Shown here: piece after piece, positions 2,418-26,300 of the stretch
Layout: the number at the start of each line of letters is the position of its first letter
How positions within the stretch are numbered: position 1 is the first letter of the stretch
Virus record (IMG/VR): IMGVR_UViG_2693429677_000024
Source: a virus
Lineage: Duplodnaviria > Heunggongvirae > Uroviricota > Caudoviricetes
Strand: one strand, 5' to 3'
Length of the DNA stretch: 26,300 nt
The notes under the pieces: model-generated
Seen by the model: the letters and a program-made list of their open reading frames with translations, nothing else
The model's database searches: none
Told to the model about the DNA's origin: nothing
Made by a program: the position numbers and the translations under genes

Positions 2418-2456
2418 TTCTCATTTGAAATGCACGGTCAAGCAGGTAGCGCTCTC

Positions 2457-3039: not shown

Positions 3040-3300
3040 AGATATTGAATTTATTGAGAATGAACCAGAGCGCCTGCGGGTCCTTTCCGGCGATCCGGCA
3101 GGCTACGGGGCGGCGACCTCGCGGGTTTTCGCTATTTATGAGTTTTTTTGAGGTGGTGGTTGTTGTTTTATCGTTTGATATATCTACTTGATAAGTAATA
3201 AGAAAGAAAAACAAACACAACAACCTGATGAGCTTTCTTATACGAAAAAGCATGTAAAATCAGAGGGTTTTACAAAAAGCGGGGTTGTTGTATTGCTTTT
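3040..3300. other. cos: cos packaging site: cosQ-like sequence, cosN (12-nt cohesive end GGGCGGCGACCT at 3108-3119), cosB
   Basis: 3081-3140 reads GGGTCCTTTCCGGCGATCCGGCAGGCTACG|GGGCGGCGACCTCGCGGGTTTTCGCTATTTATGA, which matches the lambda right-end/left-end junction as I recall it. The sequence from about 3141 to the terminase gene differs from lambda. Confidence 0.85.
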
Positions 3301-3324
3301 TTGCCGGTGGTTTATGGAGGAGCT

Positions 3325-3802
3325 GTGGCCTTTTTATTGAATAAAAGCGACATGGCCTCCTCCATCGGTATCTCAGTACAGGCATTTGATAAATGGGGTG
3401 TCCCTCCTGTTGAGCGCCGGGGGAGAGAGGTTTTCTATGACGTTAAAACTGTACTGGAGATAGATCGCGAGCGACGTCAGCAAAACCAGAAATCTTCAGA
3501 TGGTGAAAATAACCTTGAGGAAAGGCTACTTCAGGCCAGGGTTAATCTGACGGAAGAACAGGCTATTGCTCAGCGGTTAAAAAACCAGGTTGCAGAGCAT
3601 AAAGTGATTGATACCGCTTTCTCTGTTTTTGCACTGTCCCGGTTATCCGGAGAACTGGCATCTGTTCTGGACAGTATTCCGCTTTCGATGCAAAGAAAAT
3701 TCCCTGAGTTGACAGGCAGACAATTGGCTTATCTGAAAGAGCTTGTTGCGAAGGGAGCTAATAAATGCGTTGAATCTGCTGAAAAAATGAAGGAATTTGC
3801 GG

Positions 3803-3831
<29 letters not shown>
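3325..3831 (+). CDS. nu1: Terminase small subunit (Nu1-like)
   Basis: Homologous to lambda Nu1 over the central and C-terminal region (DTAFSVFALSRLSGELASVLDSIPLSMQRKFPEL). N-terminal DNA-binding region and extreme C-terminus differ from lambda. Start is ambiguous: GTG 3325 after GGAGGA at 3316-3321 is my choice; TTG 3301 and ATG 3352 are alternatives. Confidence 0.85.
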
Positions 3832-7509
<3,678 letters not shown>

Positions 7510-7529
<20 letters not shown>

Positions 7530-8829
7530 TCTCCCGCATATTGCCAGTATGGCCTTTAATGAGCCGCTGATGCTTGAACCCGCCTATGCGCGGGTTTTCT
7601 TTTGTGCGCTTGCAGGCCAGCTTGGGATCAGCCGCCTGACTGATGCGGTATCCGGCGACAGCCTGACTGCCGGAGAGGCACCCGCGACGCTGGTGTTATC
7701 CGGTAATGATGACGGACCACGACAGGCCCGCAGTTATCAGGTCATGAACGGCATCGCCGTGCTGCCGGTTTCCGGCACGCTGGTCAGCCGGACGCGGGCG
7801 CTGCAGCCGTATTCGGGGATGACCGGTTACAACGGCATTATCTCCCGTCTGCAACAGGCTGCCAGCGACCCGATGGTGGACGGCATTCTGCTGGATATGG
7901 ACACGCCGGGCGGAATGGTGGCGGGGGCATTTGACTGCGCTGACATCATCGCCCGTGTGCGTGACATAAAGCCGGTATGGGCGCTGGCCAATGACATGAA
8001 CTGCAGTGCAGGTCAGTTGCTTGCCAGTGCCGCCTCCCGGCGTCTGGTCACGCAGACCGCCCGGACAGGCTCCATCGGCGTCATGATGGCTCACAGTAAT
8101 TACGGCGCTGCGCTGGAGAAACAGGGTGTGGAAATCACGCTGATTTACAGCGGCAGCCATAAGGTGGATGGCAACCCCTACAGCCATCTTCCGGATGATG
8201 TCCGGGAAACACTGCAGTCCCGGATGGATGCAACCCGCCGGATGTTTGCGCAGAAGGTGTCGGCATATACCGGCCTGTCCGTGCAGGCCGTGCTGGATAC
8301 CGAGGCTGCAGTATACAGCGGTCAGGAGGCCATTGATGCCGGACTGGCTGATGAACTTGTTAACAGCACCGATGCGATCACCGTCATGCGTGATGCACTG
8401 GATGCACGTAAATCCCGTCTCTCAGGAGGGCGAATGACCAAAGAGACTCAATCAACAACTGTTTCTGCCACTGCTTCGCAGGCTGACGTTACTGACGTGG
8501 TTCCAGCGACGGAGGGCGAAAACGCCAGCGCGGCGCAGCCGGACGTGAACGCGCAGATCACCGCAGCGGTTGCGGCAGAAAACAGCCGCATTATGGGGAT
8601 CCTCAACTGTGAGGAGGCCCACGGACGTGAAGAACAGGCACGCGTGCTGGCAGAAACCCCCGGAATGACCGTGGAAACGGCCCGCCGCATTCTGGCCGCA
8701 GCACCACAGAGTGCACAGGCGCGCAGTGACACTGCGCTGGATCGTCTGATGCAGGGGGCACCGGCACCGCTGGCTGCAGGTAACCCGGCATCCGATGCCG
8801 TTAACGATTTGCTGAACACACCAGTGTAA
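7510..8829 (+). CDS. C: Head maturation protease / scaffold gpC
   Basis: GTG 7510 follows a GAGGAG-rich SD and gives VTAELRNLPHIASMAFNEPLMLEP..., matching the lambda C N-terminus. Overlaps the end of B by 20 nt. Confidence 0.9.
8224..8829 (+). CDS. nu3: Scaffolding protein Nu3, from an in-frame internal start inside C
   Basis: ATG at 8224 (MDATRRMFAQ...) is in the C frame, 201 codons before the shared stop. This is the same offset as lambda Nu3 within C. Confidence 0.6.
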   Translation: MDATRRMFAQKVSAYTGLSVQAVLDTEAAVYSGQEAIDAGLADELVNSTDAITVMRDALDARKSRLSGGRMTKETQSTTVSATASQADVTDVVPATEGENASAAQPDVNAQITAAVAAENSRIMGILNCEEAHGREEQARVLAETPGMTVETARRILAAAPQSAQARSDTALDRLMQGAPAPLAAGNPASDAVNDLLNTPV

Positions 8830-8838
8830 GGGATGTTT

Positions 8839-9171
8839 ATGACGAGCAAAGAAACCTTTACCCATTACCAGCCGCTGGGCAACAGTGACCCGGCTCATAC
8901 CGCAACCGCGCCCGGCGGATTGAGTGCGAAAACGCCTGCAATGACCCCGCTGATGCCGGATACCTCCACCCGTAAGCTGGTTGCGTGGGATGGCACCACT
9001 GACGGTGCTGCTGTTGGCATTCTGGCGGTTGCTGCTGACCAGACCAGCACCACGCTGACGTTCTACAAGTCCGGCACGTTCCGTTATGAGGATGTGCTCT
9101 GGCCGGATGCTGCCAGCGACGAGACGAAAAAACGGACCGCGTTTGCCGGAACGGCAATCAGCATCGTTTAA
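8839..9171 (+). CDS. D: Head decoration protein gpD
   Basis: [27 protein letters not shown]... matches lambda D; start at the second ATG (8839). Confidence 0.95.
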
Positions 9172-9226
9172 CCTGACCCTTCATCACTAAAGGCCGCCTT
9201 TGCGGCTTTTTTTACGGGATTTTTTT

Positions 9227-10252
9227 ATGTCGATGTACACAACCGCCCAGCTGCTGGCGGCAAATGAGCAGAAATTTAAGTTTGATCCGCTGTTTCTGCG
9301 TCTCTTTTTCCGTGAGAGCTATCCCTTCACCACGGAGAAAGTCTATCTCTCACAAATTCCGGGGCTGGTAAACATGGCGCTGTACGTTTCGCCGATTGTT
9401 TCCGGTGAGGTTATCCGCTCCCGTGGCGGCTCCACCTCTGAATTTACGCCGGGATATGTCAAGCCGAAGCATGAGGTGAATCCGCAGATGACTCTGCGTC
9501 GCCTGCCGGATGAAGATCCACAGAATCTGGCGGACCCGGCTTACCGCCGCCGTCGCATCATCCTGCAGAACATGCGAGACGAAGAGCTGGCCATTGCTCA
9601 GGTCGAAGAGATGCAGGCCGTTTCTGCCGTGCTCAGGGGCAAATACACCATGACCGGTGAAGCCTTCGATCCGGTTGAGGTGGATATGGGCCGCAGTGCG
9701 GCGAACAACATCACACAGTCCGGCGGCACGGAGTGGAGCAAGCGTGACAAGTCCACGTATGACCCGACCGACGATATTGAAGCCTACGCGCTGAATGCCA
9801 GCGGTGTGGTGAATATCATCGTGTTTGATCCGAAAGGCTGGGCGCTGTTCCGTTCCTTCAAAGCTGTCAGGGAGAAGCTGGATACCCGTCGCGGCTCTAA
9901 TTCCGAGCTGGAGACAGCGGTAAAAGACCTGGGTAAAGCGGTGTCCTATAAGGGGATGTATGGCGATGTGGCCATCGTCGTGTATTCCGGACAGTACGTG
10001 GAAAACGGCGTCAAAAAGAACTTCCTGCCGGACAACACGATGGTACTGGGGAACACTCAGGCACGCGGTCTGCGCACCTATGGCTGCATTCAGGATGCGG
10101 ACGCACAGCGCGAAGGCATTAACGCCTCTGCCCGCTACCCGAAAAACTGGGTGACCACCGGCGATCCGGCGCGTGAGTTCACCATGATTCAGTCAGCACC
10201 GCTGATGCTGCTGGCTGACCCTGATGAGTTCGTGTCCGTACAACTGGCGTAA
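9227..10252 (+). CDS. E: Major capsid protein gpE
   Basis: MSMYTTAQLLAANEQKFKFDPLFLRLFFRESYPF... matches lambda E (341 aa). Confidence 0.95.
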   Translation: MSMYTTAQLLAANEQKFKFDPLFLRLFFRESYPFTTEKVYLSQIPGLVNMALYVSPIVSGEVIRSRGGSTSEFTPGYVKPKHEVNPQMTLRRLPDEDPQNLADPAYRRRRIILQNMRDEELAIAQVEEMQAVSAVLRGKYTMTGEAFDPVEVDMGRSAANNITQSGGTEWSKRDKSTYDPTDDIEAYALNASGVVNIIVFDPKGWALFRSFKAVREKLDTRRGSNSELETAVKDLGKAVSYKGMYGDVAIVVYSGQYVENGVKKNFLPDNTMVLGNTQARGLRTYGCIQDADAQREGINASARYPKNWVTTGDPAREFTMIQSAPLMLLADPDEFVSVQLA

Positions 10253-10293
10253 TCATGGCCCTTCGGGGCCATTGTTTCTCTGTGGAGGAGTCC

Positions 10294-10692
10294 ATGACGA
10301 AAGATGAACTGATTGCCCGTCTCCGCTCCCTGGGTGAACAACTGAACCGTGATGTCAGCCTGACGGGGACGAAAGAAGAACTGGCGCTCCGTGTGGCAGA
10401 GCTGGAAGAGGAGCTTGATGACACGGATGACGCTGCGGGTCAGGATACCCCTCCCGGCCCGGAAAATGTGCTGACCGGGCATGAAAATGAGGTGGTATCA
10501 GCGCAGCCGGACACCGTGATTCAGGATACGGCTGAACTGGCCACGGTCGTGGCACTGGTGACGCTGCATACTGATGCACTTCACGCCACGCGGGATGAAC
10601 CTGTGGCATTTGTGCTGCCGGGAACGGCATTTCGTGTCTCTGCCGGTGTGGCAGCCGAAATGACAGAACGTGGCCTGGCCAGAATGCAATAA
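10294..10692 (+). CDS. FI: DNA packaging protein gpFI
   Basis: MTKDELIARLRSLGEQLNRDVSLTGTKEELALRVAEL... matches lambda FI; GGAGGAG SD upstream. Confidence 0.9.
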   Translation: MTKDELIARLRSLGEQLNRDVSLTGTKEELALRVAELEEELDDTDDAAGQDTPPGPENVLTGHENEVVSAQPDTVIQDTAELATVVALVTLHTDALHATRDEPVAFVLPGTAFRVSAGVAAEMTERGLARMQ

Positions 10693-10703
10693 CGGGAGGC
10701 GCT

Positions 10704-11057
10704 GTGGCTGATTTCGATAACCTGTTCGATGCTGCCATTGCCCGCGCCGATGAAACGATACGCGGGTACATGGGAACGTCAGCCACCATGACATCCGGTG
10801 AGCAGTCCGGCGCAGTAATACGTGGTGTTTTTGATGACCCTGAAAATATCAGCTATGCCGGACAGGGCGTACGTGTTGAAGGCTCCTGCCCGTCCCTGTT
10901 TGTCCGGACTGATGATGTGCGGCAGCTGCGGCGCGGCGACACGCTGACCATCGGTGAGGAAAACTTCTGGATAGACCGGATTTCACCGGATGATGGCGGA
11001 AGCTGTCATCTCTGGCTTGGGCGTGGCGTGCCGCCTGCCGTTAACCGTCGTCGCTGA
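10704..11057 (+). CDS. FII: Head-tail connector / head completion protein gpFII
   Basis: (M)ADFDNLFDAAIARADETIRGYMGTSAT... matches lambda FII; GTG start. Confidence 0.9.
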   Translation: MADFDNLFDAAIARADETIRGYMGTSATMTSGEQSGAVIRGVFDDPENISYAGQGVRVEGSCPSLFVRTDDVRQLRRGDTLTIGEENFWIDRISPDDGGSCHLWLGRGVPPAVNRRR

Positions 11058-11068
11058 AAGGAGGAGGT

Positions 11069-11602
11069 ATGGCCATAAAAGGTCTTGAGCAGGCCGTTGA
11101 AAACCTCAGCCGTATCAGCAAAACGGCAGTGCCCGGTGCCTCCGCAATGGCCATTAACCGCGTGGCCACAACGGCAATGAATCAGTCGGCGTCACAGGTT
11201 GCCCGTGAGACAAAGGTGCGGCGAAAACTGGTAAAGGAAAGGGCCAGACTGAAAAAGGCCACGGTCAAAAATCCGCACGTAAAAATCATTGTTAACCGCG
11301 GTGATTTACCTGTCATCAAACTGGGGATACGGATCACCGGAAGTCGTCCCAACAGTACGCTACGGGCCGGTCAGCATCGTTATCAGCGGGCATTTATCCA
11401 GCGATTAAAAAATGGTCGCTGGCATGTCATGCAGCGTGTGGCCGGGAAAAACCGTTACCCCATTGATGTGGTGAAAATCCCGATGGCGGTGCCGCTGACC
11501 ACGGCGTTTAAACAGAATATTGAACAGATACGGCGTGAACGTTTGCCGAAAGAACTGGAATACGCCCTGAAACAACAACTGAGGATTGCGATAAAGCGAT
11601 GA
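11069..11602 (+). CDS. Z: Tail completion protein gpZ
   Basis: MAIKGLEQAVENLSRISKTAVPGA... matches lambda Z at both ends; AGGAGGAGG SD upstream. The central segment looks different from, and shorter than, my recollection of lambda Z. Confidence 0.85.
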   Translation: MAIKGLEQAVENLSRISKTAVPGASAMAINRVATTAMNQSASQVARETKVRRKLVKERARLKKATVKNPHVKIIVNRGDLPVIKLGIRITGSRPNSTLRAGQHRYQRAFIQRLKNGRWHVMQRVAGKNRYPIDVVKIPMAVPLTTAFKQNIEQIRRERLPKELEYALKQQLRIAIKR

Positions 11603-11994
11603 AACATACTGAACTCCGTGCAGCCGTACTGGATGCACTGGAGAAGCATGACACCGGGGCGACGCTTTTTGATGGTCGCCCCGCTGTTTTTGATGAGGCG
11701 GATTTTCCGGCAGTTGCCGTTTATCTCACCGGCGCTGAATACACGGGCGAAGAGCTGGACAGCGATACCTGGCAGGCGGAGCTGCATATTGAAGTTTTCC
11801 TGCCTGCTCAGGTGCCGGATTCAGAGCTGGATGCGTGGATGGAGTCCCGGATTTATCCGGTGATGAGCGATATCCCGGCACTGTCAGATTTGATCACCAG
11901 TATGGTGGCCAGTGGCTATGACTACCGGCGCGACGATGATGCGGGCCTGTGGAGTTCAGCCGATCTGACTTATGTCATTACCTATGAAATGTGA
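11599..11994 (+). CDS. U: Tail terminator protein gpU
   Basis: 131 aa; ATGA overlap with Z; lambda U-like. Confidence 0.9.
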
Positions 11995-12001
11995 GGACGA
12001 T

Positions 12002-12742
12002 ATGCCAACACCAAATCCTCTGGCACCGGTGAAAGGGGCCGGGACCACCCTGTGGGTTTATAAGGGGAACGGTGACCCTTATGCGAACCCGCTTTCAGAC
12101 GTTGACTGGTCGCGTCTGGCAAAAGTTAAAGAACTGACGCCCGGCGAACTGACCGCAGAGTCCTATGACGACAGTTATCTCGATGATGAAGATCCGGACT
12201 GGGCCGCGACCGGGCAGGGGCAGAAATCCGCCGGAGATACCAGCTTCACGCTGGCGTGGATGCCCGGAGAGCAGGGGCAGCAGGCGCTGCTGGCGTGGTT
12301 TAATGAAGGCGATACCCGTGCCTATAAAATCCGCTTCCCGAACGGCACGGTCGATGTGTTCCGTGGCTGGGTCAGCAGTATCGGTAAGGCAGTGACGGCG
12401 AAGGAAGTGATCACCCGTACGGTGAAGGTCACCAATGTGGGCCGTCCGTCAATGGCAGAAGATCGCAGCACGGTGACAGCGGCAACCGGCATGACGGTAA
12501 CGCCAGCCAGTGCTTCCGTAGTGAAAGGGCAGAGCACCACGCTGACCGTGGCATTCCAGCCGGAAGGCGCAACCGACAAGAGCTTCCGTGCGGTGTCAGC
12601 GGATAAAACAAAAGCCACCGTGTCGGTCAGTGGTATGACCATCACCGTGAAGGGCGTTGCTGCAGGCAAGGTCAACATTCCGGTCGTATCCGGTAATGGT
12701 GAGTTTGCTGCGGTTGCAGAAATCAACGTCACCGACAGCTAA
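12002..12742 (+). CDS. V: Major tail tube protein gpV with C-terminal Ig-like (Big_2-type) domain
   Basis: [42 protein letters not shown]... matches lambda V. C-terminal [25 protein letters not shown]...ITV repeat is Ig-like. GAGGA SD upstream. Confidence 0.95.
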
Positions 12743-12757
12743 TCCGGAGAGTCAGCG

Positions 12758-13180
12758 ATGTTCCTGAAAACCGAATCATTTGAACATAACGGCGTGACCG
12801 TCACGCTTTCTGAACTGTCAGCCCTGCAGCGTATTGAGCATCTTGCCTGGTTGAAAGAGCAGGAAAAAAAGGCTGAATCCAGTGGCAACCTGCAGGTGTC
12901 TGTAGAGGATCTTATCAGAGGCGGGGCGTTTCTGGTGGCGATGTCTCTGTGGCATAACCATCCGCAGAAAACAAAGCTGCCGTCCATGAATGAAGCCATT
13001 ACGCAGATTGAGCAGGAAGTGCTTACCACCTGGCCCACGGAGGCAATTGCTCAGGCTGAAAACGTGGTGTTACGTCTGTCCGGAATGTCTGAGTTTGTTG
13101 TGAATAATGCCCCTGAACAGACAGATGACGCCGGGCCTGCAGAGCCTGTTTCTGCGGGAAAGTGTTCGACGGTGAGCTGA
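12758..13180 (+). CDS. G: Tail assembly chaperone gpG
   Basis: 140 aa, lambda G-like; contains the slippery site near its 3' end. Confidence 0.9.
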   Translation: MFLKTESFEHNGVTVTLSELSALQRIEHLAWLKEQEKKAESSGNLQVSVEDLIRGGAFLVAMSLWHNHPQKTKLPSMNEAITQIEQEVLTTWPTEAIAQAENVVLRLSGMSEFVVNNAPEQTDDAGPAEPVSAGKCSTVS

Positions 13181-13596
13181 GTTTTGCCCTGAAACTGGCG
13201 CGTGAGATGGGGCGACCCGACTGGCGCGCCATGCTTGCCGGGATGTCATCCACGGAGTATGCCGACTGGCACCGCTTTTACAGTACCCATTATTTTCATG
13301 ATGTTCTGCTGGATATGCACTTTTCCGGGCTGACGTACACCGTGCTCAGCCTGTTTTTCAGCGATCCGGATATGCATCCGCTGGATTTCAGTCTGCTGAG
13401 CCGGCGTGAGGCTGACGAAGAGCCTGAAGATGATGTGCTGATGCAGAAAGCGGCAGGGCTTGCCGGAGGCGTTCGTTTTGGCCCTGACGGGAATGAAGTT
13501 ATCCCCGCTTCCCCGGATGTGGCGGACATGACGGAGGATGACGTAATGCTGATGACAGTATCAGAAGGGATCGCAGGAGGAGTCCGGTATGGCTGA
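12758..13596 (+). CDS. GT: Tail assembly chaperone gpGT, made by programmed -1 ribosomal frameshift at GGGAAAG (13156-13162)
   Basis: G frame reads ...S-A-G-K-C. The heptamer G GGA AAG sits in the zero frame, and the -1 frame continues open as VFDGELSFALKLAREMGRPDWRAML... to 13596, as in lambda G-T. Confidence 0.8.
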
Positions 13597-16168
13597 ACCG
13601 GTAGGCGATCTGGTCGTTGATTTGAGTCTGGATGCGGCCAGATTTGACGAGCAGATGGCCAGAGTCAGGCGTCATTTTTCCGGTACGGAAAGTGATGCGA
13701 AAAAAACAGCGGCAGTCGTTGAACAGTCGATGAACCGACAGGCGCTGGCTGCACAGAAAGCGGGGATTTCCGTCGGGCAGTATAAAGCTGCCATGCGTAT
13801 GCTGCCTGCGCAGTTCACCGACGTGGCCACGCAGCTTGCAGGCGGGCAAAGTCCGTGGCTGATCCTGCTGCAACAGGGCGGTCAGGTGAAGGACTCCTTC
13901 GGCGGGATGATCCCCATGTTCAGGGGACTTGCCGGTGCGATCACCCTGCCGATGGTTGGTATCACTTCGCTAGCGGTGGCGACCGGTGCGCTGGCGTATG
14001 CCTGGTATCAGGGTGACTCAACCCTGTCTAATTTCAACAAAACGCTGGTCCTTTCCGGTAATCAGGCGGGACTGACGGCAGATCGTATGCTGGCCCTGTC
14101 CAGATCCGGGCAGGCGGCAGGGCTGACGTTTAACCAGACCAGCGAGTCACTGACGGCGCTGGTGAATGCCGGTGTGCGTGGTGGTGAGCAGTTTGAGGCA
14201 ATCAGCCAGAGTGTGGCGCGTTTCTCCTCTGCATCCGGCGTGGAGGTGGACAAGGTCGCTGAAGCCTTCGGGAAGCTGACCACTGACCCGACGTCTGGGT
14301 TGACGGCGATGGCGCGCCAGTTCCATAACGTGACGGCGGAACAGATTGCGTATGTTGCTCAGTTGCAGCGTTCCGGCGATGGGGCCGGGGCGTTGCAGGC
14401 GGCGAACGAGGCCGCAACGAAAGGGTTTGATGACCAGACCCGCCGCCTGAAAGATAACATGGGTACGCTGGAGACCTGGGCTGACAAGACTGCACAGGCA
14501 TTCAAATCCATGTGGGATGCGGTGCTGGATATTGGCCGCCCGGACTCCTCTGCAGATATGCTCGCCAAAGCTGAAAAGGCTTTTGATGAAGCGGATAAAA
14601 AATGGCAGTGGTATCAGAGCCGAAGCCACCGGCGCGGTAAAACCTCAGCATTTCTTGCCAATCTCCGTGGAGCATGGGAGGACAGAGCGAATGCGCAACT
14701 TGGGCTTTCAGCCGCCACGTTGCAGGCCGATCTTGAAAAGGCCAGAGAGATGGCAGCAAAGGACTGGGCCGACTCTGAGGCATCACGGCTGAAATATACC
14801 GAAGAGGCGCAGAAGGCTTACGAACGCCTGCAGACGCCGCTGGAGAAATATACCGCCCGTCAGGAAGAACTGAACAAGGCACTGAAGGACGGGAAAATCC
14901 TGCAGGCAGATTACAACACGCTGATGGCGGCGGCGAAAAAGGACTATGAAGCGACGCTGAAAAAGCCGAAGCACTCCGGCGTGAAGGTGTCTGCGGGCGA
15001 TCGTCAGGAAGACAGTGCTCATGCTGCCCTTCTGACGCTTCAGGCAGAACTCCGGACGCTGGAGAAGCATGCCGGAGCGAATGAGAAAATCAGCCAGCAG
15101 CGCCGGGATTTGTGGAAGGCGGAGAATCAGTTCGCGGTACTGGAGGAGGCGGCGCAACGTCGCCAGCTGTCTGCACAGGAGAAATCCCTGCTGGCGCATA
15201 AAGATGAGACGCTGGAGTACAAGCGCCAGCTGGCTGCACTTGGCGACAAGGTTACGTATCAGGAGCACCTGAACGCGCTGGCGCAGCAGGCGGATAAATT
15301 CGCACAGCAGCAACGGGCAAAACGGGCCGCCATTGATGCGAAAAGCCGGGGGCTGACTGACCGGCAGGCAGAACGGGAAGGCACGGAACAGCGCCTGAAG
15401 GAGGAGTATGGCGATAATCCGCTGGCGCTGAATAACGTCATGTCAGAGCAGAAAAAGACCTGGGCGGCTGAAGACCAGCTTCGCGGGAGCTGGATGGCAG
15501 GCCTGAAGTCCGGCTGGAGTGAGTGGGAAGAGAGCGCCACGGACAGTATGTCGCAGGTAAAAAGTGCAGCCACGCAGACCTTTGATGGAATTGCACAGAA
15601 TATGGCGGCGATGCTGACCGGCAGTGAGCAGAACTGGCGCAGCTTCACCCGTTCCGTGCTGTCTATGATGACAGAAATTCTGCTTAAGCAGGCAATGGTG
15701 GGGATTGTCGGGAGTATCGGCAGCGCCATTGGCGGGGCTGCCGGTGGTGGCGCATCCGCGTCAGGCGGTAGAGCCATTCAGGCCGCTGCGGCGAAATTCC
15801 ATTTTGCAACCGGAGGATTTACGGGAACCGGCGGCAAATATGAGCCAGCGGGGATTGTTCACCGTGGTGAGTTTGTCTTCACGAAGGAGGCAACCAGCCG
15901 GATTGGCGTGGGGAATCTTTACCGGCTGATGCGCGGCTATGCCACCGGCGGTTATGTCGGTACACCGGGCAGCATGGCAGACAGCCGATCGCAGGCGTCC
16001 GGGACGTTTGAGCAGAATAACCATGTGGTGATTAACAACGACGGCACGAACGGGCAGATTGGACCACAGGCGCTGAAGGCTGTGTATGACATGGCCCGCA
16101 AGGGTGCCCGTGATGAAATTCAGGCACAGATGCGCGATGGTGGTCTGTTCTCCGGAGGTGGACGATGA
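13589..16168 (+). CDS. H: Tail tape measure protein gpH
   Basis: 859 aa; MAEPVGDLVVDLSLDAARFDEQMARVRRHF... matches lambda H. Confidence 0.95.
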   Translation: MAEPVGDLVVDLSLDAARFDEQMARVRRHFSGTESDAKKTAAVVEQSMNRQALAAQKAGISVGQYKAAMRMLPAQFTDVATQLAGGQSPWLILLQQGGQVKDSFGGMIPMFRGLAGAITLPMVGITSLAVATGALAYAWYQGDSTLSNFNKTLVLSGNQAGLTADRMLALSRSGQAAGLTFNQTSESLTALVNAGVRGGEQFEAISQSVARFSSASGVEVDKVAEAFGKLTTDPTSGLTAMARQFHNVTAEQIAYVAQLQRSGDGAGALQAANEAATKGFDDQTRRLKDNMGTLETWADKTAQAFKSMWDAVLDIGRPDSSADMLAKAEKAFDEADKKWQWYQSRSHRRGKTSAFLANLRGAWEDRANAQLGLSAATLQADLEKAREMAAKDWADSEASRLKYTEEAQKAYERLQTPLEKYTARQEELNKALKDGKILQADYNTLMAAAKKDYEATLKKPKHSGVKVSAGDRQEDSAHAALLTLQAELRTLEKHAGANEKISQQRRDLWKAENQFAVLEEAAQRRQLSAQEKSLLAHKDETLEYKRQLAALGDKVTYQEHLNALAQQADKFAQQQRAKRAAIDAKSRGLTDRQAEREGTEQRLKEEYGDNPLALNNVMSEQKKTWAAEDQLRGSWMAGLKSGWSEWEESATDSMSQVKSAATQTFDGIAQNMAAMLTGSEQNWRSFTRSVLSMMTEILLKQAMVGIVGSIGSAIGGAAGGGASASGGRAIQAAAAKFHFATGGFTGTGGKYEPAGIVHRGEFVFTKEATSRIGVGNLYRLMRGYATGGYVGTPGSMADSRSQASGTFEQNNHVVINNDGTNGQIGPQALKAVYDMARKGARDEIQAQMRDGGLFSGGGR

Positions 16169-16494
16169 AAACCTTCCGCTGGAAAGTGAAACCCGGGATG
16201 GATGTGACATCGGCTCCTTCCGTCAGGGAGGTGCGCTTTGGTGATGGCTATTCCCAGCGTGCGCCTGCCGGGCTGAACGCTGACCTGAAAACGTACAGCG
16301 TGACGCTGTCTGTCTCCCGTGAGGAGGCCACGGCGCTGGAGTCGTTTCTGGCTGAGCACGGGGGCTGGAAGGCCTTTCTGTGGACGCCGCCTTATGGTTA
16401 CAGGCAGATAAAGGTGACCTGCGCAAAATGGTCGTCGCAGGTCAGTATGCTGCGTGTTGAGTTCAGCGCAGAGTTTAAACAGGTGGTGAACTGA
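16165..16494 (+). CDS. M: Minor tail protein gpM
   Basis: 109 aa, lambda M-like; ATGA overlap with H. Confidence 0.9.
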   Translation: MKTFRWKVKPGMDVTSAPSVREVRFGDGYSQRAPAGLNADLKTYSVTLSVSREEATALESFLAEHGGWKAFLWTPPYGYRQIKVTCAKWSSQVSMLRVEFSAEFKQVVN

Positions 16495-18545: not shown

Positions 18546-21500
18546 ATGGGTAAAGGCAGCAGTAAGGGGCATACCCCGCGTGAAGCGAAGGACAACCTGA
18601 AATCAACGCAGTTGCTGAGTGTGATTGATGCCATTAGTGAAGGCCCGATTGAAGGTCCGGTGGATGGATTAAAAAGCGTGCTGCTGAACAGTACGCCGGT
18701 GCTGGACACTGAGGGGAATACCAATATCTCCGGCGTCACGGTGGTGTTCCGGGCAGGTGAGCAGGAGCAGACTCCGCCGGAGGGGTTTGAATCCTCCGGT
18801 TCCGAGACGGTGCTGGGTACGGAAGTGAAATATGACACGCCGATCACCCGCACCATCACGTCGGCAAACATCGACCGACTGCGCTTTACCTTCGGTGTGC
18901 AGGCTCTGGTGGAAACCACTTCAAAGGGGGACCGGAATCCATCGGAAGTCCGCCTGCTGGTTCAGATACAGCGTAACGGTGGCTGGGTGACGGAAAAAGA
19001 CATCACCATTAAGGGCAAAACCACGTCGCAGTATCTGGCCTCGGTGGTGGTGGATAACCTGCCGCCGCGCCCGTTCAGTATCCGGATGCGCAGGATGACG
19101 CCGGACAGCACCACAGACCAGCTGCAGAACAAAACGCTCTGGTCATCATACACCGAAATTATCGATGTGAAACAGTGCTACCCGAACACGGCACTGGTCG
19201 GCGTGCAGGTGGACTCGGAGCAGTTCGGCAGCCAGCAGGTGAGCCGTAATTATCATCTGCGCGGGCGTATTCTGCAGGTGCCGTCGAATTATAACCCGCA
19301 GACGCGGCAATACAGCGGTATCTGGGACGGAACGTTTAAACCGGCATACAGCAACAACATGGCCTGGTGTCTGTGGGATATGCTGACCCATCCGCGCTAC
19401 GGCATGGGGAAACGTCTTGGTGCGGCGGATGTGGACAAATGGGCGCTGTATGTCATCGGCCAGAATTGCGACCAGTCGGTGCCGGATGGCTTTGGTGGCA
19501 CGGAGCCGCGCATCACCTGTAATGCGTACCTGACCACGCAGCGCAAGGCGTGGGATGTGCTCAGTGATTTCTGCTCGGCGATGCGCTGTATGCCGGTATG
19601 GAACGGGCAGACGCTGACGTTCGTGCAGGACCGACCGTCGGATAAGGTGTGGACCTATAACCGCAGTAATGTGGTGATGCCGGATGATGGCGCGCCGTTC
19701 CGCTACAGCTTCAGCGCCCTGAAGGACCGCCATAATGCCGTTGAGGTGAACTGGATTGACCCGAACAACGGCTGGGAGACGGCGACAGAGCTTGTTGAAG
19801 ATACGCAGGCCATTGCCCGTTACGGTCGTAATGTCACGAAGATGGATGCCTTTGGTTGTACCAGTCGGGGGCAGGCACACCGCGCCGGGCTGTGGCTGAT
19901 TAAAACGGAACTGCTGGAAACGCAGACCGTGGACTTCAGCGTGGGTGCTGAAGGGCTTCGCCATGTACCGGGCGATGTTATTGAAATCTGCGATGATGAC
20001 TATGCGGGGATCAGCACCGGTGGGCGCGTGCTGGCGGTGAACAGCCAGACCCGGACGCTGACGCTCGACCGTGAAATCACGCTGCCATCCTCCGGTACCA
20101 CGCTGATAAGCCTGGTTGACGGAAGTGGCAATCCGGTCAGCGTGGAGGTCCAGTCCGTCACCGACGGCGTGAAGGTAAAAGTGAGCCGTGTTCCTGACGG
20201 CGTTGCCGGATACAGCGTATGGGGGCTGAAGCTGCCGACGCTGCGCCAGCGCCTGTTCCGCTGCGTGAGTATCCGTGAGAACGATGACGGCACGTATGCC
20301 ATCACCGCCGTGCAGCATGTACCGGAAAAAGAGGCCATCGTGGATAACGGGGCGCACTTTGACGGCGACCAGAGCGGCACGGTGAATGGTGTCACGCCGA
20401 CAGCGGTGCAGCACCTGACTGCCGAAGTCACCGCAGACAGCGGGGAATATCAGGTGCTGGCGCGCTGGGATACGCCGAAGGTGGTGAAGGGGGGGAGCTT
20501 TATGCTTCGCCTGACCGTGGCAGCGGATGACGGCAGTGAGCGGCTGGTCAGCACGGCCCGGACGACGGAAACCACATACCGCTTCAGGCAGCTGGCGTTG
20601 GGGCGTTACACGCTGACAGTCCGGGCGGTAAATGCCCGGGGACAGCAGGGCGATCCGGCGTCGGTATCGTTCCGGATTGCCGCACCGGCAGCGCCGTCAC
20701 AGATTGAGCTGACGCCGGGCTATTTTCAGATAACCGCCACGCCGCATCTTGCGGTTTATGATCCGACGGTACAGTTTGAATTCTGGTTTTCTGAAACGAA
20801 GATTTCAGATGTCTCACAGGTGGACAAATCTGCCCGCTATCTTGGTACGGCACTGTACTGGGTAGCCTCCGGCCAGAATATTAAGCCGGGCCATGATTAT
20901 TACTTTTATGTTCGCAGTGTGAATACCGTTGGCAAATCGGCATTCGTGGAGGCTGTCGGCCAGCCGGGTAATAATCCTGAAGAGTATCTCAATTTTTTTG
21001 AAGGGAAAATAAACAGCACCCTGCTGGGGCAGGAGCTGAATGATCGTATTAATGCCTCTGCATTGCGCAGTGAAGTTGAGCAACTGGAGGATGAGGTCAA
21101 TCAGCGACTGGAGAGTGATATTGCCGGGGTGACCCAAAAAATCGGGGAAACTGAAAACAGCCTCACGCAGCTGGTTGCTAAAAAAAATGATGAGCAGTCA
21201 CTGGCCATATCCCAGGTGAGTCAGAAAGTGGACAACGTCAGTAGCGAACTCACGCAAACGGTCAGTCAGAGTAATGAGGAGAATGCACGCCAGATTGCGC
21301 AGGTTCGTCAGTATGTGGATGAAAAAAGCAGTGAAATCATCTCGACGACAGACAAAAAACTGGGCGAGCAGGAAGCAACAATCCAGCAGATACAAAAGGT
21401 TCAGACAGACACCAGTAATAACCTGAACAGTATGTGGGCCGTGAAACTGCAGCAGATGCAGGATGGTCGCCTTTACATTGCGGGTATCGGTGCCGGTATT

Positions 21501-22247
21501 GAGAATACCCCTGACGGTATGCAGAGTCAGGTGCTGCTGGCGGCAGACAGGATTGCGTTCATTAATCCGGAGAACGGTAACACCACTCCAGCACTGGTCA
21601 CGCAGGGGGGACAGACGTTTATCAATGAAGCGCTGATTAAGACCCTTATTGCTCCCACAATTACCAGTGGTGGCAATCCTCCTGCATTTTCCCTGACATC
21701 AGACGGAAAGCTGACCGCTAAAAATGCGGATATCAGTGGCAGTGTGAATGCGAACTCAGGGACGCTCAACAACGTCACGATAAATGAGAACTGTCAGATT
21801 AAGGGGAAACTGTCCGCCAACCAGATTGAAGGCGATATTGTCAAAACGGTCAGCAAGTCTTTCCCCCGCACGAGCACTTATGCCAGCGGCACCATTACGG
21901 TCACGATTAGTGATGATCAGAAGTTTGACCGACAGGTCATGATCCCGGCTCTGCTGTTTAAAGGAAGCAGGAAGGAAAATTATGGCAGTAATAATCAACA
22001 GTCTTATGTTTATTCTGTATGCCGTTTGCAGGTAACGAAAAACGGGACAGAAATTTTTAACCAGTCAACAACGGATGCTCCGGCGGTTTTTTCTTCCGTT
22101 ATTGATATGCCTGCGGGGCAGGGAACGTTGACGTTAAAGTTTACGGTCTCTTCTTCAATGGTCAATAACTGGACACCGACAACCAGTATCAGCGATTTGC
22201 TTGTTGTGGTGATGAAGAAATCCACTGCAGGTATCACGATTAGCTGA
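18546..22247 (+). CDS. J: Central tail fibre / host specificity protein gpJ, 1233 aa
   Basis: [24 protein letters not shown]... is lambda J-like over roughly the first 800 residues. The distal part keeps the [38 protein letters not shown] block but has a longer coiled-coil-like segment and a divergent C-terminus. Confidence 0.95.
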
Positions 22248-22265: not shown

Positions 22266-22291
22266 GGGCGCCAGAAATGGCGCCTTTTTTA
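22266..22291 (+). terminator. Intrinsic terminator after J
   Basis: GGGCGCC agaaat GGCGCC followed by T6. Confidence 0.6.
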
Positions 22292-22314: not shown

Positions 22315-22914
22315 ATGCGTAAAGTTTGTGCAGCCATGTTGTCCGCAGCCATCTGTCTGGCCGTATCCGGTGCGCCTGCATGGGCGTCTGAGCAGCAGGC
22401 CACGCTGAGCGCGGGGTATCTTCATGCCCGGACGAACGCTCCCGGCAGCGATAATCTTAACGGGATTAACGTGAAATACCGTTATGAATTTACGGACACG
22501 CTGGGGCTGGTGACGTCATTCAGCTATGCAGGAGACAGGAATCGCCAGCTTACCCGTTACAGCGATACCCGCTGGCATGAAGATTCTGTGCGTAACCGCT
22601 GGTTCAGCGTCATGGCGGGGCCCTCTGTGCGCGTGAATGAATGGTTCAGCGCGTATACGATGGCGGGTGTGGCTTACAGCCGTGTGTCGACTTTCTCCGG
22701 GGATTATCTCCGCGTAACTGACAACAAGGGAAAAACGCACGACGTGCTGACCGGAAGTGATGACGCTCGCCACAGTAACACCTCTATGGCGTGGGGAGCT
22801 GGCGTGCAGTTTAACCCGACCGAATCCGTGGCCGTTGATGTCGCTTATGAAGGCTCCGGCAGTGGCGACTGGCGCACTGACGGGTTCATCGTGGGTGTTG
22901 GTTATAAATTCTGA
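22315..22914 (+). CDS. lom: Outer-membrane beta-barrel protein Lom (Ail/OmpX family), a lysogen-expressed moron
   Basis: [38 protein letters not shown]... matches lambda Lom; signal peptide; ends in aromatic F. GAGAGG SD upstream. Confidence 0.9.
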
Positions 22915-22967: not shown

Positions 22968-25900
22968 GTGAATATGACGGTTAAGATTTCAGGTGTACTG
23001 AAAGATGGGGCAGGCAAACCGGTACAAAACTGTACCATTCAGCTAAAGGCCAGACGCAACAGCACCACGGTGGTGGTGAACACGGTGGCCTCAGAAAATC
23101 CGGATGAAGCCGGGCGTTATAGTATGGACGTTGAGTATGGCCAGTACAGCGTCACCCTGCTGGTTGAAGGTTTTCCGCCTTCGCATGCCGGGACCATCAC
23201 CGTGTATGAAGATTCTCAACCCGGTACGCTGAATGATTTTCTCGGCGCAATGACGGAGGATGATGCCCGTCCGGAGGCACTGCGCCGTTTTGAACTGATG
23301 GTGGAAGAGGTGGCGCGTAACGCGTCCGCAGTGGCACAGAACACGGAAGCCGCGAAGAAGTCAGCCAGCGATGCCAGCACATCTGCCAGTGAGGCGGCAA
23401 TCCATGCGACTGATGCTGCAGACTCAGCACGCGCAGCCAGCACGTCAGCCGGACAGGCTGCATCATCTGCTCAGTCAGCATCTTCCAGCGCAGGAACAGC
23501 ATCAACAAAGGCCACTGAAGCCTCAAAAAGTGCCTCCGCAGCAGCAGACTCAAAAACAGCGGCTGAGTCGTCTGCCAGCGCCGCGTCAACAAGTGCCGGG
23601 CAGGCCTCAGCCAGTGCCACCGCCGCCGGAAAATCGGCGGAAAGCGCGTCGTCATCGGCAACAACAGCTACCGCAAAAGCGACTGAGGCGACGAGTCAGA
23701 CTACAGCCGCGAAAGATTCAGCATTGGCAGCAAAAACCTCTGAAACAAATGCAAAGACTTCAGAAGACAATGCCGCTTCCTCTAAGGCGGCAGCTGCTGA
23801 ATCTGCAAGTTCTGCGTCTGCATCAGCCACCTCGGCGTCCGCTTCAAAAGATGAGGCGATCAGGCAGGCGTCAGCTGCGAAGGGTAGTGCTTCAACGGCA
23901 TCCACGAAAGCAACAGAGGCGGCAGGCAGTGCGACGGCTGCATCTCAGAGCAAAACTGCTGCTGAATCCGCTGCGACCCGTGCGGAAGCTGCTGCTGATC
24001 GTGCTGAAGAGATTGCCGGTGCGGTTGCGATGGAAGACGCAAGCCTTACCACTAAAGGTGTTGTGAAACTTAGCAGTGCTGTCGACAGCACCAGTGAATC
24101 GCTGGCCGCAACGCCAAAGGCAGTTAAAGCAGTCAATGACAATGCGAACAGCAGGGTGCCATCTGACCGAAAAATTAACGGGAAAGCACTGACTGGGGAT
24201 ATCACATTAACGCCGAAAGATATTGGTACTTTAAATTCAGTAACGATGTCTTTCTCTGGCGGGGCTGGGTGGTTCAAACTGGCTACGGTTACCATGCCAC
24301 AAGCGAGTTCCATCGTTTACATCACATTGATTGGTGGTGCCGGATACAACGTCGGCTCCCCACAGCAGGCAGGTATTTCAGAACTGGTTCTACGAGCAGG
24401 CAATGGAAACCCCAAAGGGATTACCGGAGCTTTGTGGAAGCGTACAGCCGTCGGATTAACGAATTTCGCCTGGATCAACACATCCGGCGATACATATGAT
24501 ATTTACGTTGAGACTGGCAATTATGCGACGAGTGTAAATATCCATTGGGATTGTACCGCAAATGCGTCAGTTTCTGTTTATACATCGCCAGCCTATTCAG
24601 CGAGTAAGCCTTCCGGCGTTACCGATGGTGTTGTTTATACGATGTATAGCTCACATCAGAAACCTACACCATCAGATATTGGAGCACTGCCAACAACCGG
24701 AGGAACAGTTTCAGGTCCGTTGTCTGTTACTGGTGGGATCACCGGGGCACTGAAGGGGAACGCCGATACCGCGACGAAACTTGCGGCAGCCAAAAAAATT
24801 AACGGTGTTAAGTTTGATGGCTCGGCGGATATTAATCTCACGCCGGAAAATATTGGTGCATTTGCCCTACGTGCGACGGGGGCTTATGCGGATTCGGATG
24901 GAGCCGTTCCGTGGAATGCTGAATCCGGTGCATATAATGTCACGCGTTCTGGCGACTCCTATCTTGTTGCAAACTTTTATACCGGTGTGGGGAGTTGCCG
25001 GACTCTCCAGATTCGCGCTCATTACAAGAATGGCGGTCTGTTTTACCGTTCTTCGCGTGATGGTTATGGCTTTGAGGAAGACTGGACTCAGATTTATACC
25101 AAAAAAGACAGCATTCCGGGAGTAAATACGACAGGTAACCAGAACACTACGGGTAATGCGGCAACAGCTACAAAACTACAGACGGCAAGAACTATCGGCG
25201 GTGTGAGCTTTGATGGTACTGCGAATATTAACTTGCCTGGTGTTAATACGACTGGTAACCAGAGCACTACAGGCAATGCAGCTACTGCCACGAAGTTGCA
25301 GACAGCGCGTACTATTAATGGCGTGTCGTTTGACGGTTCGGCAAATATTTCTCTGTCACCAGCAAATATTGGTTGCCCGGCATCTCCAACTGGCTGGTTA
25401 GGCACAGGAAGTAATGGTGCATCAATAACAACGGCTCAGTTAGTGACGATATTGCAGAATAATGGTGCCTTCAATACAAAAGCATGGGTGGCACGCTGTG
25501 CCTGGGCATACGCTGACAGCGCCTCCATACCAGACAGTGAAACAGGCTGCGGCATTATTCCACTGGCGGGGGCGGTGATAGAAGTATTCAGCCACAGTGC
25601 AACTTATTACACCATTCGAATAACAACAGCCACGACGACAAGTGTCTCTGGCGCACTCACTAATGCGGAATTTATCTATGTGTTTAATGGCACAGCTTAT
25701 TCCCCCGGATGGCGTCGTGCACTGAACACAAAGAAACTGCCCACACCGCTTGAAATTGGCGCTTACAGCATATCGGAGATTAACCAACTCAATAAAAGTT
25801 TTATCACGTCATCAAAACTCGAAGGCGGCTCGTTAGATGCAAACTTCCAGACGTTAAGTTGTTATTATTTGCAAATATTCGACATTCAGACAACAACCGA

Positions 25901-26300
25901 TAGTCCTAACATGTTCGTAAGTCCGGTTGCTGGTTACAACATGGTATTTCGTTCGACTTCATCCCGTCGATACAAGACGGATATCGAGTCTTTAGAGAAC
26001 AGGTACGCGGACGAGTTGTTGAAACTTCGTCCTGTATGGTATCGCTCGACTTGTGAAAGGGACAGAAAGGACTGGGGACATTATGGCCTTATTGCAGAAG
26101 AAGTCGGAGAGATAGCACCGCAATATGTTCACTGGCGTCCTCTTACAGACGAGGATGATCCAGGTATAGCGTCTGATAATGGGATGGTTGCAGAAGGCGT
26201 GATGTATGACCGTCTGGTTGTTCCACTCATTCATCATATTCAGAAACTGACAAAAAGGGTTGAGGAGCTTGAAGCAAAGTTAAAGCTATCCGAGCTATAA
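22968..26300 (+). CDS. stf: Side tail fibre protein Stf, 1110 aa, with C-terminal intramolecular-chaperone (peptidase S74-like) domain
   Basis: N-terminus (MN)MTVKISGVLKDGAGKPVQNCTIQLKARRNSTTVVVNTV... matches lambda Stf. Followed by a long Ala/Ser/Thr-rich region, three copies of a tail-fibre repeat (GNAATATKL...GVSFDG.ANI.L) and a C-terminal SSRRYKTDIESLENR...coiled-coil region. Start is GTG 22968 or ATG 22974. The stop codon is the last 3 bases of the window. Confidence 0.9.
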   Translation: MNMTVKISGVLKDGAGKPVQNCTIQLKARRNSTTVVVNTVASENPDEAGRYSMDVEYGQYSVTLLVEGFPPSHAGTITVYEDSQPGTLNDFLGAMTEDDARPEALRRFELMVEEVARNASAVAQNTEAAKKSASDASTSASEAAIHATDAADSARAASTSAGQAASSAQSASSSAGTASTKATEASKSASAAADSKTAAESSASAASTSAGQASASATAAGKSAESASSSATTATAKATEATSQTTAAKDSALAAKTSETNAKTSEDNAASSKAAAAESASSASASATSASASKDEAIRQASAAKGSASTASTKATEAAGSATAASQSKTAAESAATRAEAAADRAEEIAGAVAMEDASLTTKGVVKLSSAVDSTSESLAATPKAVKAVNDNANSRVPSDRKINGKALTGDITLTPKDIGTLNSVTMSFSGGAGWFKLATVTMPQASSIVYITLIGGAGYNVGSPQQAGISELVLRAGNGNPKGITGALWKRTAVGLTNFAWINTSGDTYDIYVETGNYATSVNIHWDCTANASVSVYTSPAYSASKPSGVTDGVVYTMYSSHQKPTPSDIGALPTTGGTVSGPLSVTGGITGALKGNADTATKLAAAKKINGVKFDGSADINLTPENIGAFALRATGAYADSDGAVPWNAESGAYNVTRSGDSYLVANFYTGVGSCRTLQIRAHYKNGGLFYRSSRDGYGFEEDWTQIYTKKDSIPGVNTTGNQNTTGNAATATKLQTARTIGGVSFDGTANINLPGVNTTGNQSTTGNAATATKLQTARTINGVSFDGSANISLSPANIGCPASPTGWLGTGSNGASITTAQLVTILQNNGAFNTKAWVARCAWAYADSASIPDSETGCGIIPLAGAVIEVFSHSATYYTIRITTATTTSVSGALTNAEFIYVFNGTAYSPGWRRALNTKKLPTPLEIGAYSISEINQLNKSFITSSKLEGGSLDANFQTLSCYYLQIFDIQTTTDSPNMFVSPVAGYNMVFRSTSSRRYKTDIESLENRYADELLKLRPVWYRSTCERDRKDWGHYGLIAEEVGEIAPQYVHWRPLTDEDDPGIASDNGMVAEGVMYDRLVVPLIHHIQKLTKRVEELEAKLKLSEL
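25116..25355 (+). repeat. Two tandem 120-bp in-frame repeat units inside stf (each 40 aa)
   Basis: Units 25116-25235 and 25236-25355 encode PGVNTTGNQ(N/S)TTGNAATATKLQTARTI(G/N)GVSFDG(T/S)ANI(N/S)L. A third, more divergent copy lies at about 24740-24845. Confidence 0.85.

Follow-up and report, generated by a model that had tools for sequence, protein, structure and literature searches.

The side tail fibre gene (stf) described here lies at the end of a 26,300-nt stretch of DNA from a tailed virus (IMG/VR record IMGVR_UViG_2693429677_000024), which is called the window below. Its closest described relatives include the fibres of phages lambda, Mu and T5 and the tailspike of phage K1F, each of which resembles part of the protein.

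In lambda (Ur-lambda), Stf is encoded after J and lom and consists of an N-terminal anchor, an Ala/Ser/Thr-rich shaft and a distal domain, followed by a separate tfa gene (orf-194). The present gene shares this position and an Ala/Ser/Thr-rich shaft after the anchor, and over its first 129 residues it shares 90% identity with lambda orf-401, which represents the N-terminus of Stf. In contrast, its distal half is unrelated to that of lambda, ends in a Peptidase S74 domain and is not accompanied by tfa. The Mu fibre S/S' (PDB 8JU3, 5YVQ) is homologous to the Phage_fiber_2 element and to residues 626–712 and 800–920. However, the domain order is reversed here, and where Mu has its own tip and a Tfa-type partner, the present fibre has a tip plus S74 module.

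The C-terminal chaperone of the K1F endosialidase (PDB 3GW6), the founding member of Peptidase S74, resembles the end of the present fibre in its i, i+5 Ser-Lys dyad, its C-terminal trimeric helix and its beta-hairpin tentacle. It belongs, however, to an enzymatic podovirus tailspike, is only 12–15% identical and gives a weak Foldseek match (E 0.03). T5 pb1 is, like the present protein, a long lateral siphovirus fibre with an Ala/Ser-rich helical N-terminal region, a beta-structured distal part and a C-terminal S74 chaperone, which in T5 is cut between Thr and Ser, with a Lys at +5 from the Ser. The sequence match between the two spans the entire chaperone. The differences are a different N-terminal anchor and receptor-binding domain, a chaperone of 133 aa in T5 versus 113 aa here, the lack of a counterpart of the T5 Arg1250 sensor at equal spacing, and low identity: pb1 was found with a profile of 95 homologues (E 3.6e-08), and a single-sequence PDB search with the C-terminus returned only a weak T5 match (E 0.015).

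The cleavage-site role of T1263-S1264 and K1269 in T5 pb1 has been described (PMC4690869), as have the roles of S911/K916 in endoNF and S587/K592 in MyRF (PMC8326128). An Arg from the neighbouring chain serves as a "folding sensor" 14 residues before the Ser; it is R897 in endoNF (PMC8326128) and R1250 in T5 (PMC4690869). On Stf-type fibres with an intramolecular chaperone, the literature searched yielded nothing more specific than the general remark that fibres often end in S74 domains.

Here, we describe the gene domain by domain. Its product is very probably the side tail fibre of a lambda-like E. coli prophage, put together by module shuffling and ending in an S74 chaperone.

Gene extent and genomic setting

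The stf gene directly follows J (18546–22247) and lom (22315–22914), as the third gene of the lambdoid J-lom-stf order. The first codon of its frame is GTG 22968, which the first-pass annotation had given as the start. ATG 22974, two codons further on, is the likely start, because the N-terminus read from it, MTVKISGVLKDG, is like that of lambda Stf, a Shine-Dalgarno-like GGGGTGA precedes it with 5 nt spacing, and RefSeq begins at the same codon. Residues are therefore numbered from M1 at nt 22974 (Table 1). At the other end, the TAA stop occupies 26298–26300, the final bases of the window, as noted earlier. A search for promoters and terminators around stf yielded nothing notable besides a hairpin located between J and lom. 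Upstream of position 16491 the prophage is a mosaic when compared with complete E. coli genomes.

Table 1. Domains and repeats of the side tail fibre gene.
Feature	Residues (aa)	Position (nt)	Strand	Basis
stf (side tail fibre)	1–1108	22974..26300	+	1108 codons + TAA stop
Lambda-type Stf N-terminal tail-attachment domain	1–134	22974..23375	+	Pfam PF08400 (phage_tail_N), E 3.6e-72
Ala/Ser/Thr-rich shaft	~115–352 (238 aa)	23316..24029	+	Composition, A+S+T fraction 0.68–0.80
Phage_fiber_2 repeat, single	357–396	24042..24161	+	Pfam PF03406, E 1.3e-18
Beta-rich domain, no assigned fold or function	400–583	24171..24722	+	phrog_21552, phrog_3299
~40-aa repeat "ATKL..INGV.FDG.A.INL", copy 1	584–623	24723..24842	+	Read from translation
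Mu S'-like domain, second (more distal) type	626–712	24849..25109	+	phmmer i-Evalue 5.6e-22
~40-aa repeat, copies 2 and 3, in tandem	716–755, 756–795	25119..25358	+	TRF, direct repeat D1
Mu S'-like domain, first type	800–920	25371..25733	+	phmmer i-Evalue 3.7e-26
Distal tip, candidate receptor-binding end	921–995	25734..25958	+	Conserved with chaperone, 95 homologues
Peptidase_S74 intramolecular chaperone	996–1108	25959..26297	+	Pfam PF13884

N-terminal anchor and heptad shaft

A lambda Stf-like N-terminus of about 120 aa had been recognized from the translation. The identity to lambda Stf and the PF08400 match over residues 1–134, which like those to PF03406 and PF13884 exceeds its Pfam cut-off, bear this out, and residues 1–94 also match the "Tail fiber protein" of PDB 9e7m (E 5.8e-51).

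The region that follows had been described as about 250 aa of Ala/Ser/Thr-rich low-complexity sequence. Its composition and approximate length hold, but it is not of low complexity: a featureless stretch is ruled out by a periodicity test, which revealed a strict heptad repeat. The sequence autocorrelation peaks at lags of 7, 14, 21, 28 and 35 residues (z 6.5–9.4, highest at lag 7 with z = 9.4), the Fourier peak lies at 3.49 residues, and the shaft as a whole consists of 34 heptads without interruption. Because the heptads are unbroken, it is reasoned that the shaft is a coiled coil. A full-length AF2 monomer (42-sequence alignment) places helices at 102–201, 218–286 and 291–351 with low confidence; since its mean pLDDT is 41.5, the model was used for secondary structure only and was dropped as a query for fold searches. 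The shaft is thus predicted to be an alpha-helical, presumably trimeric, coiled-coil rod, which would be about 35 nm long if helical throughout. Against NCBIfam, the fibre gave only spurious coiled-coil matches (SMC, TopJ), far under the cut-offs.

Repeats and beta-structured middle domains

The Phage_fiber_2 repeat, which matches residues 105–156 of Mu tail fibre S in PDB 5yvq (E 2.1e-08), marks the switch from the helical shaft to a beta-structured fibre. The AF2 model gives the domain behind it (residues 400–583) a beta-stranded structure, with low confidence. Its two PHROG families carry no functional annotation, and a PDB sequence search with it gave no match.

The first-pass annotation counted three tail-fibre repeats in this region. 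Three copies of the ~40-aa motif can indeed be seen by eye; the Pfam Phage_fiber_2 repeat is a separate, single element. Copies 2 and 3 are identical at 35 of 40 residues when their translations are compared, and TRF reports them as a 120-nt period with 1.9 copies and 73% matches (25116–25349). The copies are interspersed with two Mu S'-like domains. The counterpart of residues 626–712 is formed by residues ~324–410 of PDB 8ju3, and that of residues 800–920 by residues ~195–320 (whole-chain E 9.1e-56), so that the two domains stand in the opposite order to Mu.

Distribution and integrity of the gene

Of 5426 complete E. coli genomes, 4890 carry the DNA of the N-terminal part and only four the full-length gene (at least 98.6% identity). 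The same middle and distal modules are found on other anchors, without PF08400, for instance in phage Cyrano and in P0173 and P0194. Together with the reversed order of the Mu S'-like domains, this distribution agrees with the modular chimera proposed earlier. The combination of an Stf anchor with an S74 end is widespread in prophages of E. coli and E. albertii. The protein itself is identical to RefSeq WP_077764199.1 and to that of contig L008 (GCA_047272025.1), in which J is of equal length, and it falls in a 90%-identity cluster (P0121) of 99 member sequences. The arrangement is common, and databases already show it; it is real but ordinary.

The rarity of the full-length gene could also be read differently. 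For the last ~180 aa, most of the nearest relatives are encoded as stand-alone genes of 225–234 aa, and a stand-alone tip plus chaperone may have been fused in frame to stf by accident, leaving a non-functional product in a decaying prophage. However, four genomes carry the ORF in intact form, at two integration sites, and changes between genomes are mostly synonymous (32 synonymous and 14 non-synonymous codon differences from strain A25). The size of the cluster, the abundance of other fused Stf plus S74 architectures and the completeness of the structural module, from terminase to fibre, within the window argue in the same direction. An accidental fusion is thus highly improbable, and we treat the gene as a functional, module-shuffled fibre.

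Distal tip and S74 chaperone

The first-pass annotation suggested that the C-terminus resembles a peptidase S74 chaperone followed by a short coiled coil, and it named a profile search as a check. That search supports the suggestion: PF13884 scores 34.0 bits over residues 996–1052 (gathering cut-off 22; E 3.7e-08), with positions 1–57 of the 58 in the profile covered. The domain, which starts with an SSRRYK motif at nt 25959, forms the extreme C-terminus of the protein.

An AF2 monomer of residues 923–1108 has pLDDT values of 93–98 across the chaperone. It contains two strands (1052–1056 and 1071–1076) that form the beta-hairpin "tentacle" and a C-terminal coiled-coil helix at about residues 1078–1107 (156–185 of the 186-residue model), with pLDDT 94–98 over residues ~1082–1105. 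When the chaperone model was compared with the PDB by Foldseek, the only matches were 7dc3, 3gud and 3gw6. The best of them is 7dc3, the MyRF ICA (E 9.5e-06, probability 1.0); the others are the intramolecular chaperones (IMC) of GA-1 gp12 and K1F endoNF. As modelled, the S74 fold is present with its alpha/beta body, hairpin tentacle and long C-terminal helix.

The tip that precedes the chaperone has low pLDDT in the monomer. Conservation among 95 homologues reaches at least 90% at T973, T974, N979, R993, S994 and T995 of the tip, which ends in a conserved RSTS at the predicted scissile bond. By analogy with T5 pb1 (PMC4690869), the tip is a candidate for the receptor-binding end; in the mature fibre, it would be the C-terminal part.

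Predicted cleavage site

A conserved cleavage-site Ser had been proposed as a further check, and S996 answers to this description. T995-S996 and K1001 align with T1263-S1264 and K1269 of T5 pb1, and the +5 spacing of S996 and K1001 is the same as in endoNF. K1001 is invariant among the 95 homologues, and S996, like the three residues before it, is at least 90% conserved. Based on this alignment, cleavage is predicted between T995 and S996 and would free the last 113 aa. In the literature we found no experimental processing of this protein or of any Stf-type fibre.

The position 14 residues before the Ser, at which endoNF and T5 use an Arg, is occupied by V982, and the closest conserved Arg is R993 at -3. 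Therefore, the sensor part of the mechanism may differ here. The missing Arg, and the fact that cleavage is predicted from sequence, leave room for an S74-like domain that trimerises the fibre and is then kept uncut, serving permanently as a cap or trimerisation knob. Against such a cap, conservation in the 95 homologues includes the Ser, the Lys and the RST in front of the Ser; this would not be expected of a dispensable catalytic site, and in T5 a chaperone that is left uncleaved masks receptor binding (PMC4690869). We consider a permanent cap improbable and favour a chaperone that is cut off after folding.

Absence of tfa

If the fibre carries its own chaperone, as was suggested in the first pass, a separate tfa gene would not be needed. 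The region downstream of the window was read from other strains in which the gene is 98.6–100% identical, the window's own genome being absent from the complete genomes searched. No tfa is annotated downstream of stf in four independent genome contexts at two integration sites; the gene is followed there by AT-rich cargo and then by the end of the prophage. Likewise, tblastn searches with lambda Tfa and a DUF4376-type protein, over the 26.3-kb window and 3–8 kb downstream at the four loci, gave nothing better than E of about 1 (best 1.3). An intact tfa directly downstream is also missing in other S74-ended Stf variants. Since no cognate tfa lies downstream, the protein is of the Stf type in its anchor alone, and it is proposed that no tfa accompanies the fibre because its folding help is built in.

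The Mu S'-like domains derive from a fibre that in Mu uses a Tfa-type chaperone (8ju3), and the fibre might on this ground still depend on an unrecognised assembly factor acting in trans from elsewhere, for example from a helper prophage. However, the target of Tfa proteins is the distal tip, and in the present fibre this part is the S74-associated module; moreover, neither the 26.3-kb window nor the 3–8 kb downstream at the four loci gave a tfa-like sequence. Such a factor is very unlikely, and built-in folding help is the reading that we retain.

Proposed assembly of the fibre

Based on these comparisons, it appears that the fibre would be built in the following way. Three chains would bind the tail tip via the lambda-type N-terminal domain, from which the ~240-residue coiled-coil shaft would point outward. 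Beyond the shaft would lie the beta-structured distal half, made of shuffled repeats, the two Mu S'-like domains and the small tip. The S74 chaperone would trimerise via its C-terminal helix and template the folding of the intertwined tip. Correct folding of the tip would then allow Ser996, with Lys1001 as its activator, to cut the T995-S996 bond; release of the chaperone would then expose the putative receptor-binding end.

Stand-alone S74 genes and implications

The tip plus chaperone module occurs more often as a stand-alone gene of ~230 aa. In lambdoid prophages and Drexlerviridae, stand-alone S74 proteins share 50–62% identity with the fibre across ~90% of its last 186 aa, and the RSTSSxRYK site is common to both. 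An example is KarlJaspers bas06_0035, annotated as "putative lateral tail fiber chaperone". Many E. coli prophages carry the separate form, and so do Drexlerviridae, in which this label is its only annotation. Unlike the module described here, which is joined in frame to the rest of the fibre gene, these proteins are encoded by separate genes two ORFs after the fibre gene and have their own N-terminus of ~45 aa. The ORFs of 93 and 95 aa that flank the stand-alone gene do not correspond to parts of the window fibre (E above 0.8).

It is conceivable, though rather doubtful, that tip plus S74 forms a mobile cassette able to function either when joined to a fibre, as here, or when encoded on its own, in a ~230-aa gene placed two ORFs behind the fibre gene. 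If so, the fused form would be a natural "Rosetta stone" for the stand-alone proteins: they would cooperate physically with the upstream fibre, as subunits of its distal part or as S74 chaperones working in trans. In the literature searched, we did not find the S74 domain described in this role, as a separate gene cooperating with a fibre.

The finding carries little weight beyond annotation. The current label, "prophage tail fiber N-terminal domain-containing protein", is better replaced by side tail fibre with C-terminal intramolecular chaperone and predicted processing at T995/S996. Stand-alone S74 genes beside fibre genes could merit separate study. Since S74-ended fibres would need no partner gene, they may be convenient donors for lambda-based particles with new host ranges, and the heptad shaft, the 40-aa repeats and the "GAYS/YTKTE" junction before the tip would offer natural splice points.

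The C-terminal chaperone domain

The side tail fibre protein (Stf) was proposed in the first-pass annotation to end in a peptidase S74 intramolecular chaperone, and several lines of evidence bear this out. The C-terminus scores 34.0 bits against Pfam PF13884 (gathering score 22), and a profile of the C-terminal 186 aa, built from 95 homologues, matches T5 pb1 (8hqz) over the whole chaperone (E 3.6e-08). Pairwise alignment with T5 pb1 places T995-S996 on the scissile bond T1263-S1264 and K1001 on K1269. This same Ser-Lys dyad at i, i+5 has been demonstrated by mutagenesis in endoNF (S911/K916) and MyRF (S587/K592) (PMC8326128). All 95 aligned sequences have K1001, and R993, S994, T995, the cleavage-site S996, and S997 are each at least 90% conserved. 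The AF2 model covering aa 923-1108, with pLDDT 93-98 throughout the chaperone, combines an alpha/beta body with a beta hairpin and a terminal helix of 30 residues. When this model was searched against the PDB with Foldseek, taking matches of probability > 0.1, only intramolecular-chaperone structures were returned: the MyRF ICA 7dc3 (E 9.5e-06, probability 1.0), GA-1 gp12 3gud, and K1F endoNF 3gw6. Judged from the profiles and the predicted fold, the S74 domain is real. One difference is noteworthy: endoNF and T5 carry a folding-sensing Arg at -14, whereas Stf has V982 there. The conserved R993 at -3 may or may not substitute for it.

Features of the side tail fibre gene and its neighbours (aa, Stf residues counted from ATG 22974; nt, window positions)
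Feature	Position	Remark
J	nt 18546-22247	upstream of lom
lom	nt 22315-22914	upstream of stf
Lambda-type Stf anchor	aa 1-134	Pfam PF08400, E 3.6e-72
Ala/Ser/Thr-rich stretch	aa ~115-352	A+S+T fraction 0.68-0.80
Phage_fiber_2 repeat, single	aa 357-396	Pfam, E 1.3e-18
Beta-rich domain	aa 400-583	matches only PHROG families without assigned function
~40-aa units, three	aa 584-623, 716-755, 756-795	'ATKL..INGV.FDG.A.INL'
Mu S'-like domains, two	nt 24849-25109, 25371-25733	
Small tip	aa 921-995	
S74 domain	aa 996-1108	

Absence of a separate tfa gene

The accompanying suggestion that no separate tail fibre assembly gene (tfa) is needed was examined in three annotated chromosomes and contig L008 (GCA_047272025.1), which encodes an identical Stf. 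At these four loci an AT-rich gap of 329-371 bp lies directly 3' of stf. Beyond it come first a gene for a nitroreductase-DUF1653 fusion, next an opposite-strand alpha/beta hydrolase gene, and finally the prophage end, which adjoins prfC or ybhB/bioA depending on the locus. None has tfa downstream, and neither lambda Tfa nor a DUF4376-type protein, used as tblastn queries, gave a match at E < 1 in the window or the four loci. Nor was an intact tfa found directly downstream of the other S74-ended Stf variants examined.

The cargo between stf and the prophage end (11334-14300 in L001, the locus of strain 377323_2f, just past the window end) has 37% GC versus 54.5% in the window. It encodes a 292-aa fusion protein and the opposite-strand hydrolase, and occurs at both integration sites, on the prfC side and the ybhB/bioA side. 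In one of these variants (L014-L016, 3001-8638), the S74-ended Stf of 942 aa precedes a Caudo_TAP (tfa) remnant of only 24 aa, after which come another Stf, of 590 aa, and a DUF4376 protein. The arrangement is one of fibre cassettes in tandem, with a recombination scar.

Proposed maturation

For Stf itself, the analysis establishes which domains are present, the conservation of the dyad, the fold, and the lack of tfa; trimerisation, folding guidance, cleavage, and release of the chaperone are proposed by analogy with T5 pb1 and endoNF. The terminal helices of the chaperone would trimerise, and its hairpins would next direct how the intertwined tip folds. Cleavage of the T995-S996 bond by Ser996 would occur only after the tip has folded. 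The 113-aa fragment would then depart and unmask the receptor-binding end, as in T5, where the uncleaved form does not block infection (PMC4690869).

Gene start, anchor, and shaft

The order J-lom-stf is common to the window and lambda. The J-lom intergenic region has a terminator-like hairpin (22266-22285; 8 pairs, 6 of them G-C, then a T-run). The ORF had been placed at 22968-26300. Its end holds, with TAA at 26298-26300 as the window's final bases, but GTG 22968 only opens the longest frame, and ATG 22974 on the + strand is the probable start, giving 1108 aa. Three points favour it: the resulting N-terminus, MTVKISGVLKDG, agrees with lambda Stf; a Shine-Dalgarno-like GGGGTGA precedes it by 5 nt; and RefSeq starts the identical WP_077764199.1 there.

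The N-terminus, of which ~120 aa had been called lambda Stf-like, is indeed so: besides the PF08400 match, aa 1-129 are 90% identical to lambda orf-401, and aa 1-94 match PDB 9e7m, 'Tail fiber protein' (E 5.8e-51). The next ~250 aa had been read as Ala/Ser/Thr-rich low complexity. The composition stands, but featureless low complexity is ruled out by a lag-7 periodicity. Residue autocorrelation has its only peaks at lags 7, 14, 21, 28, and 35 (z 6.5-9.4 versus shuffles), and the Fourier spectrum of the Ala positions peaks at 3.49 residues. Since these periodicities define 34 heptads in a single register, the stretch is predicted to be a coiled-coil shaft, and aa 102-351 are also helical in an AF2 model of the entire protein, which is of low confidence.

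Middle modules and chimerism

Three central repeats had been noticed, and they correspond to the ~40-aa units. The last two form a 120-nt tandem repeat (25119-25358) with 35/40 residues identical but DNA only 73% identical, nearly all differences being synonymous, which is what an old duplication, or selection against identical repeat DNA, would produce. The regions between and after the units include two domains with homology to Mu tail fibre S' (PDB 8ju3). The first (Stf aa 629-749) corresponds to 8ju3 residues 324-440 and the second (aa 758-921) to residues 168-320, the opposite order to that in Mu.

The view of Stf as a modular chimera is upheld, as different segments are common to different relatives. 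E. albertii Stf proteins (934-936 aa) have aa 1-655 in common with this Stf (88%), and homologue P0122 has aa 121-1108 (88%). Fibres of ~110-kb elements (e.g. phage Cyrano) and homologues P0173 and P0194 have middle or distal parts in common and no PF08400 anchor. The 5' part of stf has an 80-90% match in 4890 of 5426 complete E. coli genomes; the whole gene occurs at >= 98.6% identity in only four (100% in 377323_2f, 99.4% in two JNE strains, 98.6% in A25). The four copies differ patchily and mostly synonymously (32 synonymous and 14 non-synonymous codons versus A25).

The prophage is likewise a mosaic, because its head and tail genes best match other prophages without this stf, and L001 matches only from 16491 onward (99.05%), 1-16490 being different. 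The tape-measure protein has 859 aa in the window versus 1021 aa in 377323_2f.

Distribution of the architecture

Most of the closest relatives of the C-terminal ~180 aa are stand-alone proteins of 225-234 aa that share the RSTSSxRYK site. Their genes (5587-6291 in the lambdoid prophage locus L003, 4827-5504 in L005, 4875-5558 in L006; relatives of window 25740-26297) encode ~230 aa with their own ~45-aa N-terminus, two ORFs downstream of the fibre gene. Both lambdoid prophages (L003, phage PhiR55_1) and Drexlerviridae carry them; the annotation in KarlJaspers, one of the latter, is 'putative lateral tail fiber chaperone'. No description of their function was found in the literature searched. 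Of 5426 complete E. coli genomes, ~980 contain a match (~72%) to DNA of this chaperone type. The tip-plus-S74 module is more often a separate gene than fused, and the window stf is its fused form.

PF08400 and PF13884 occur together in ~70 of the best 120 full-length homologue clusters, from E. coli and E. albertii, and the exact protein is already in RefSeq and UniRef with both Pfam hits precomputed. No description of a processed Stf-type fibre specifically was found in the literature searched. Many classes of fibre are described as commonly ending in S74 domains (PMC12143355; PMC11990801; PMC4122784). The S74-ended Stf is a correct annotation within an already known kind.
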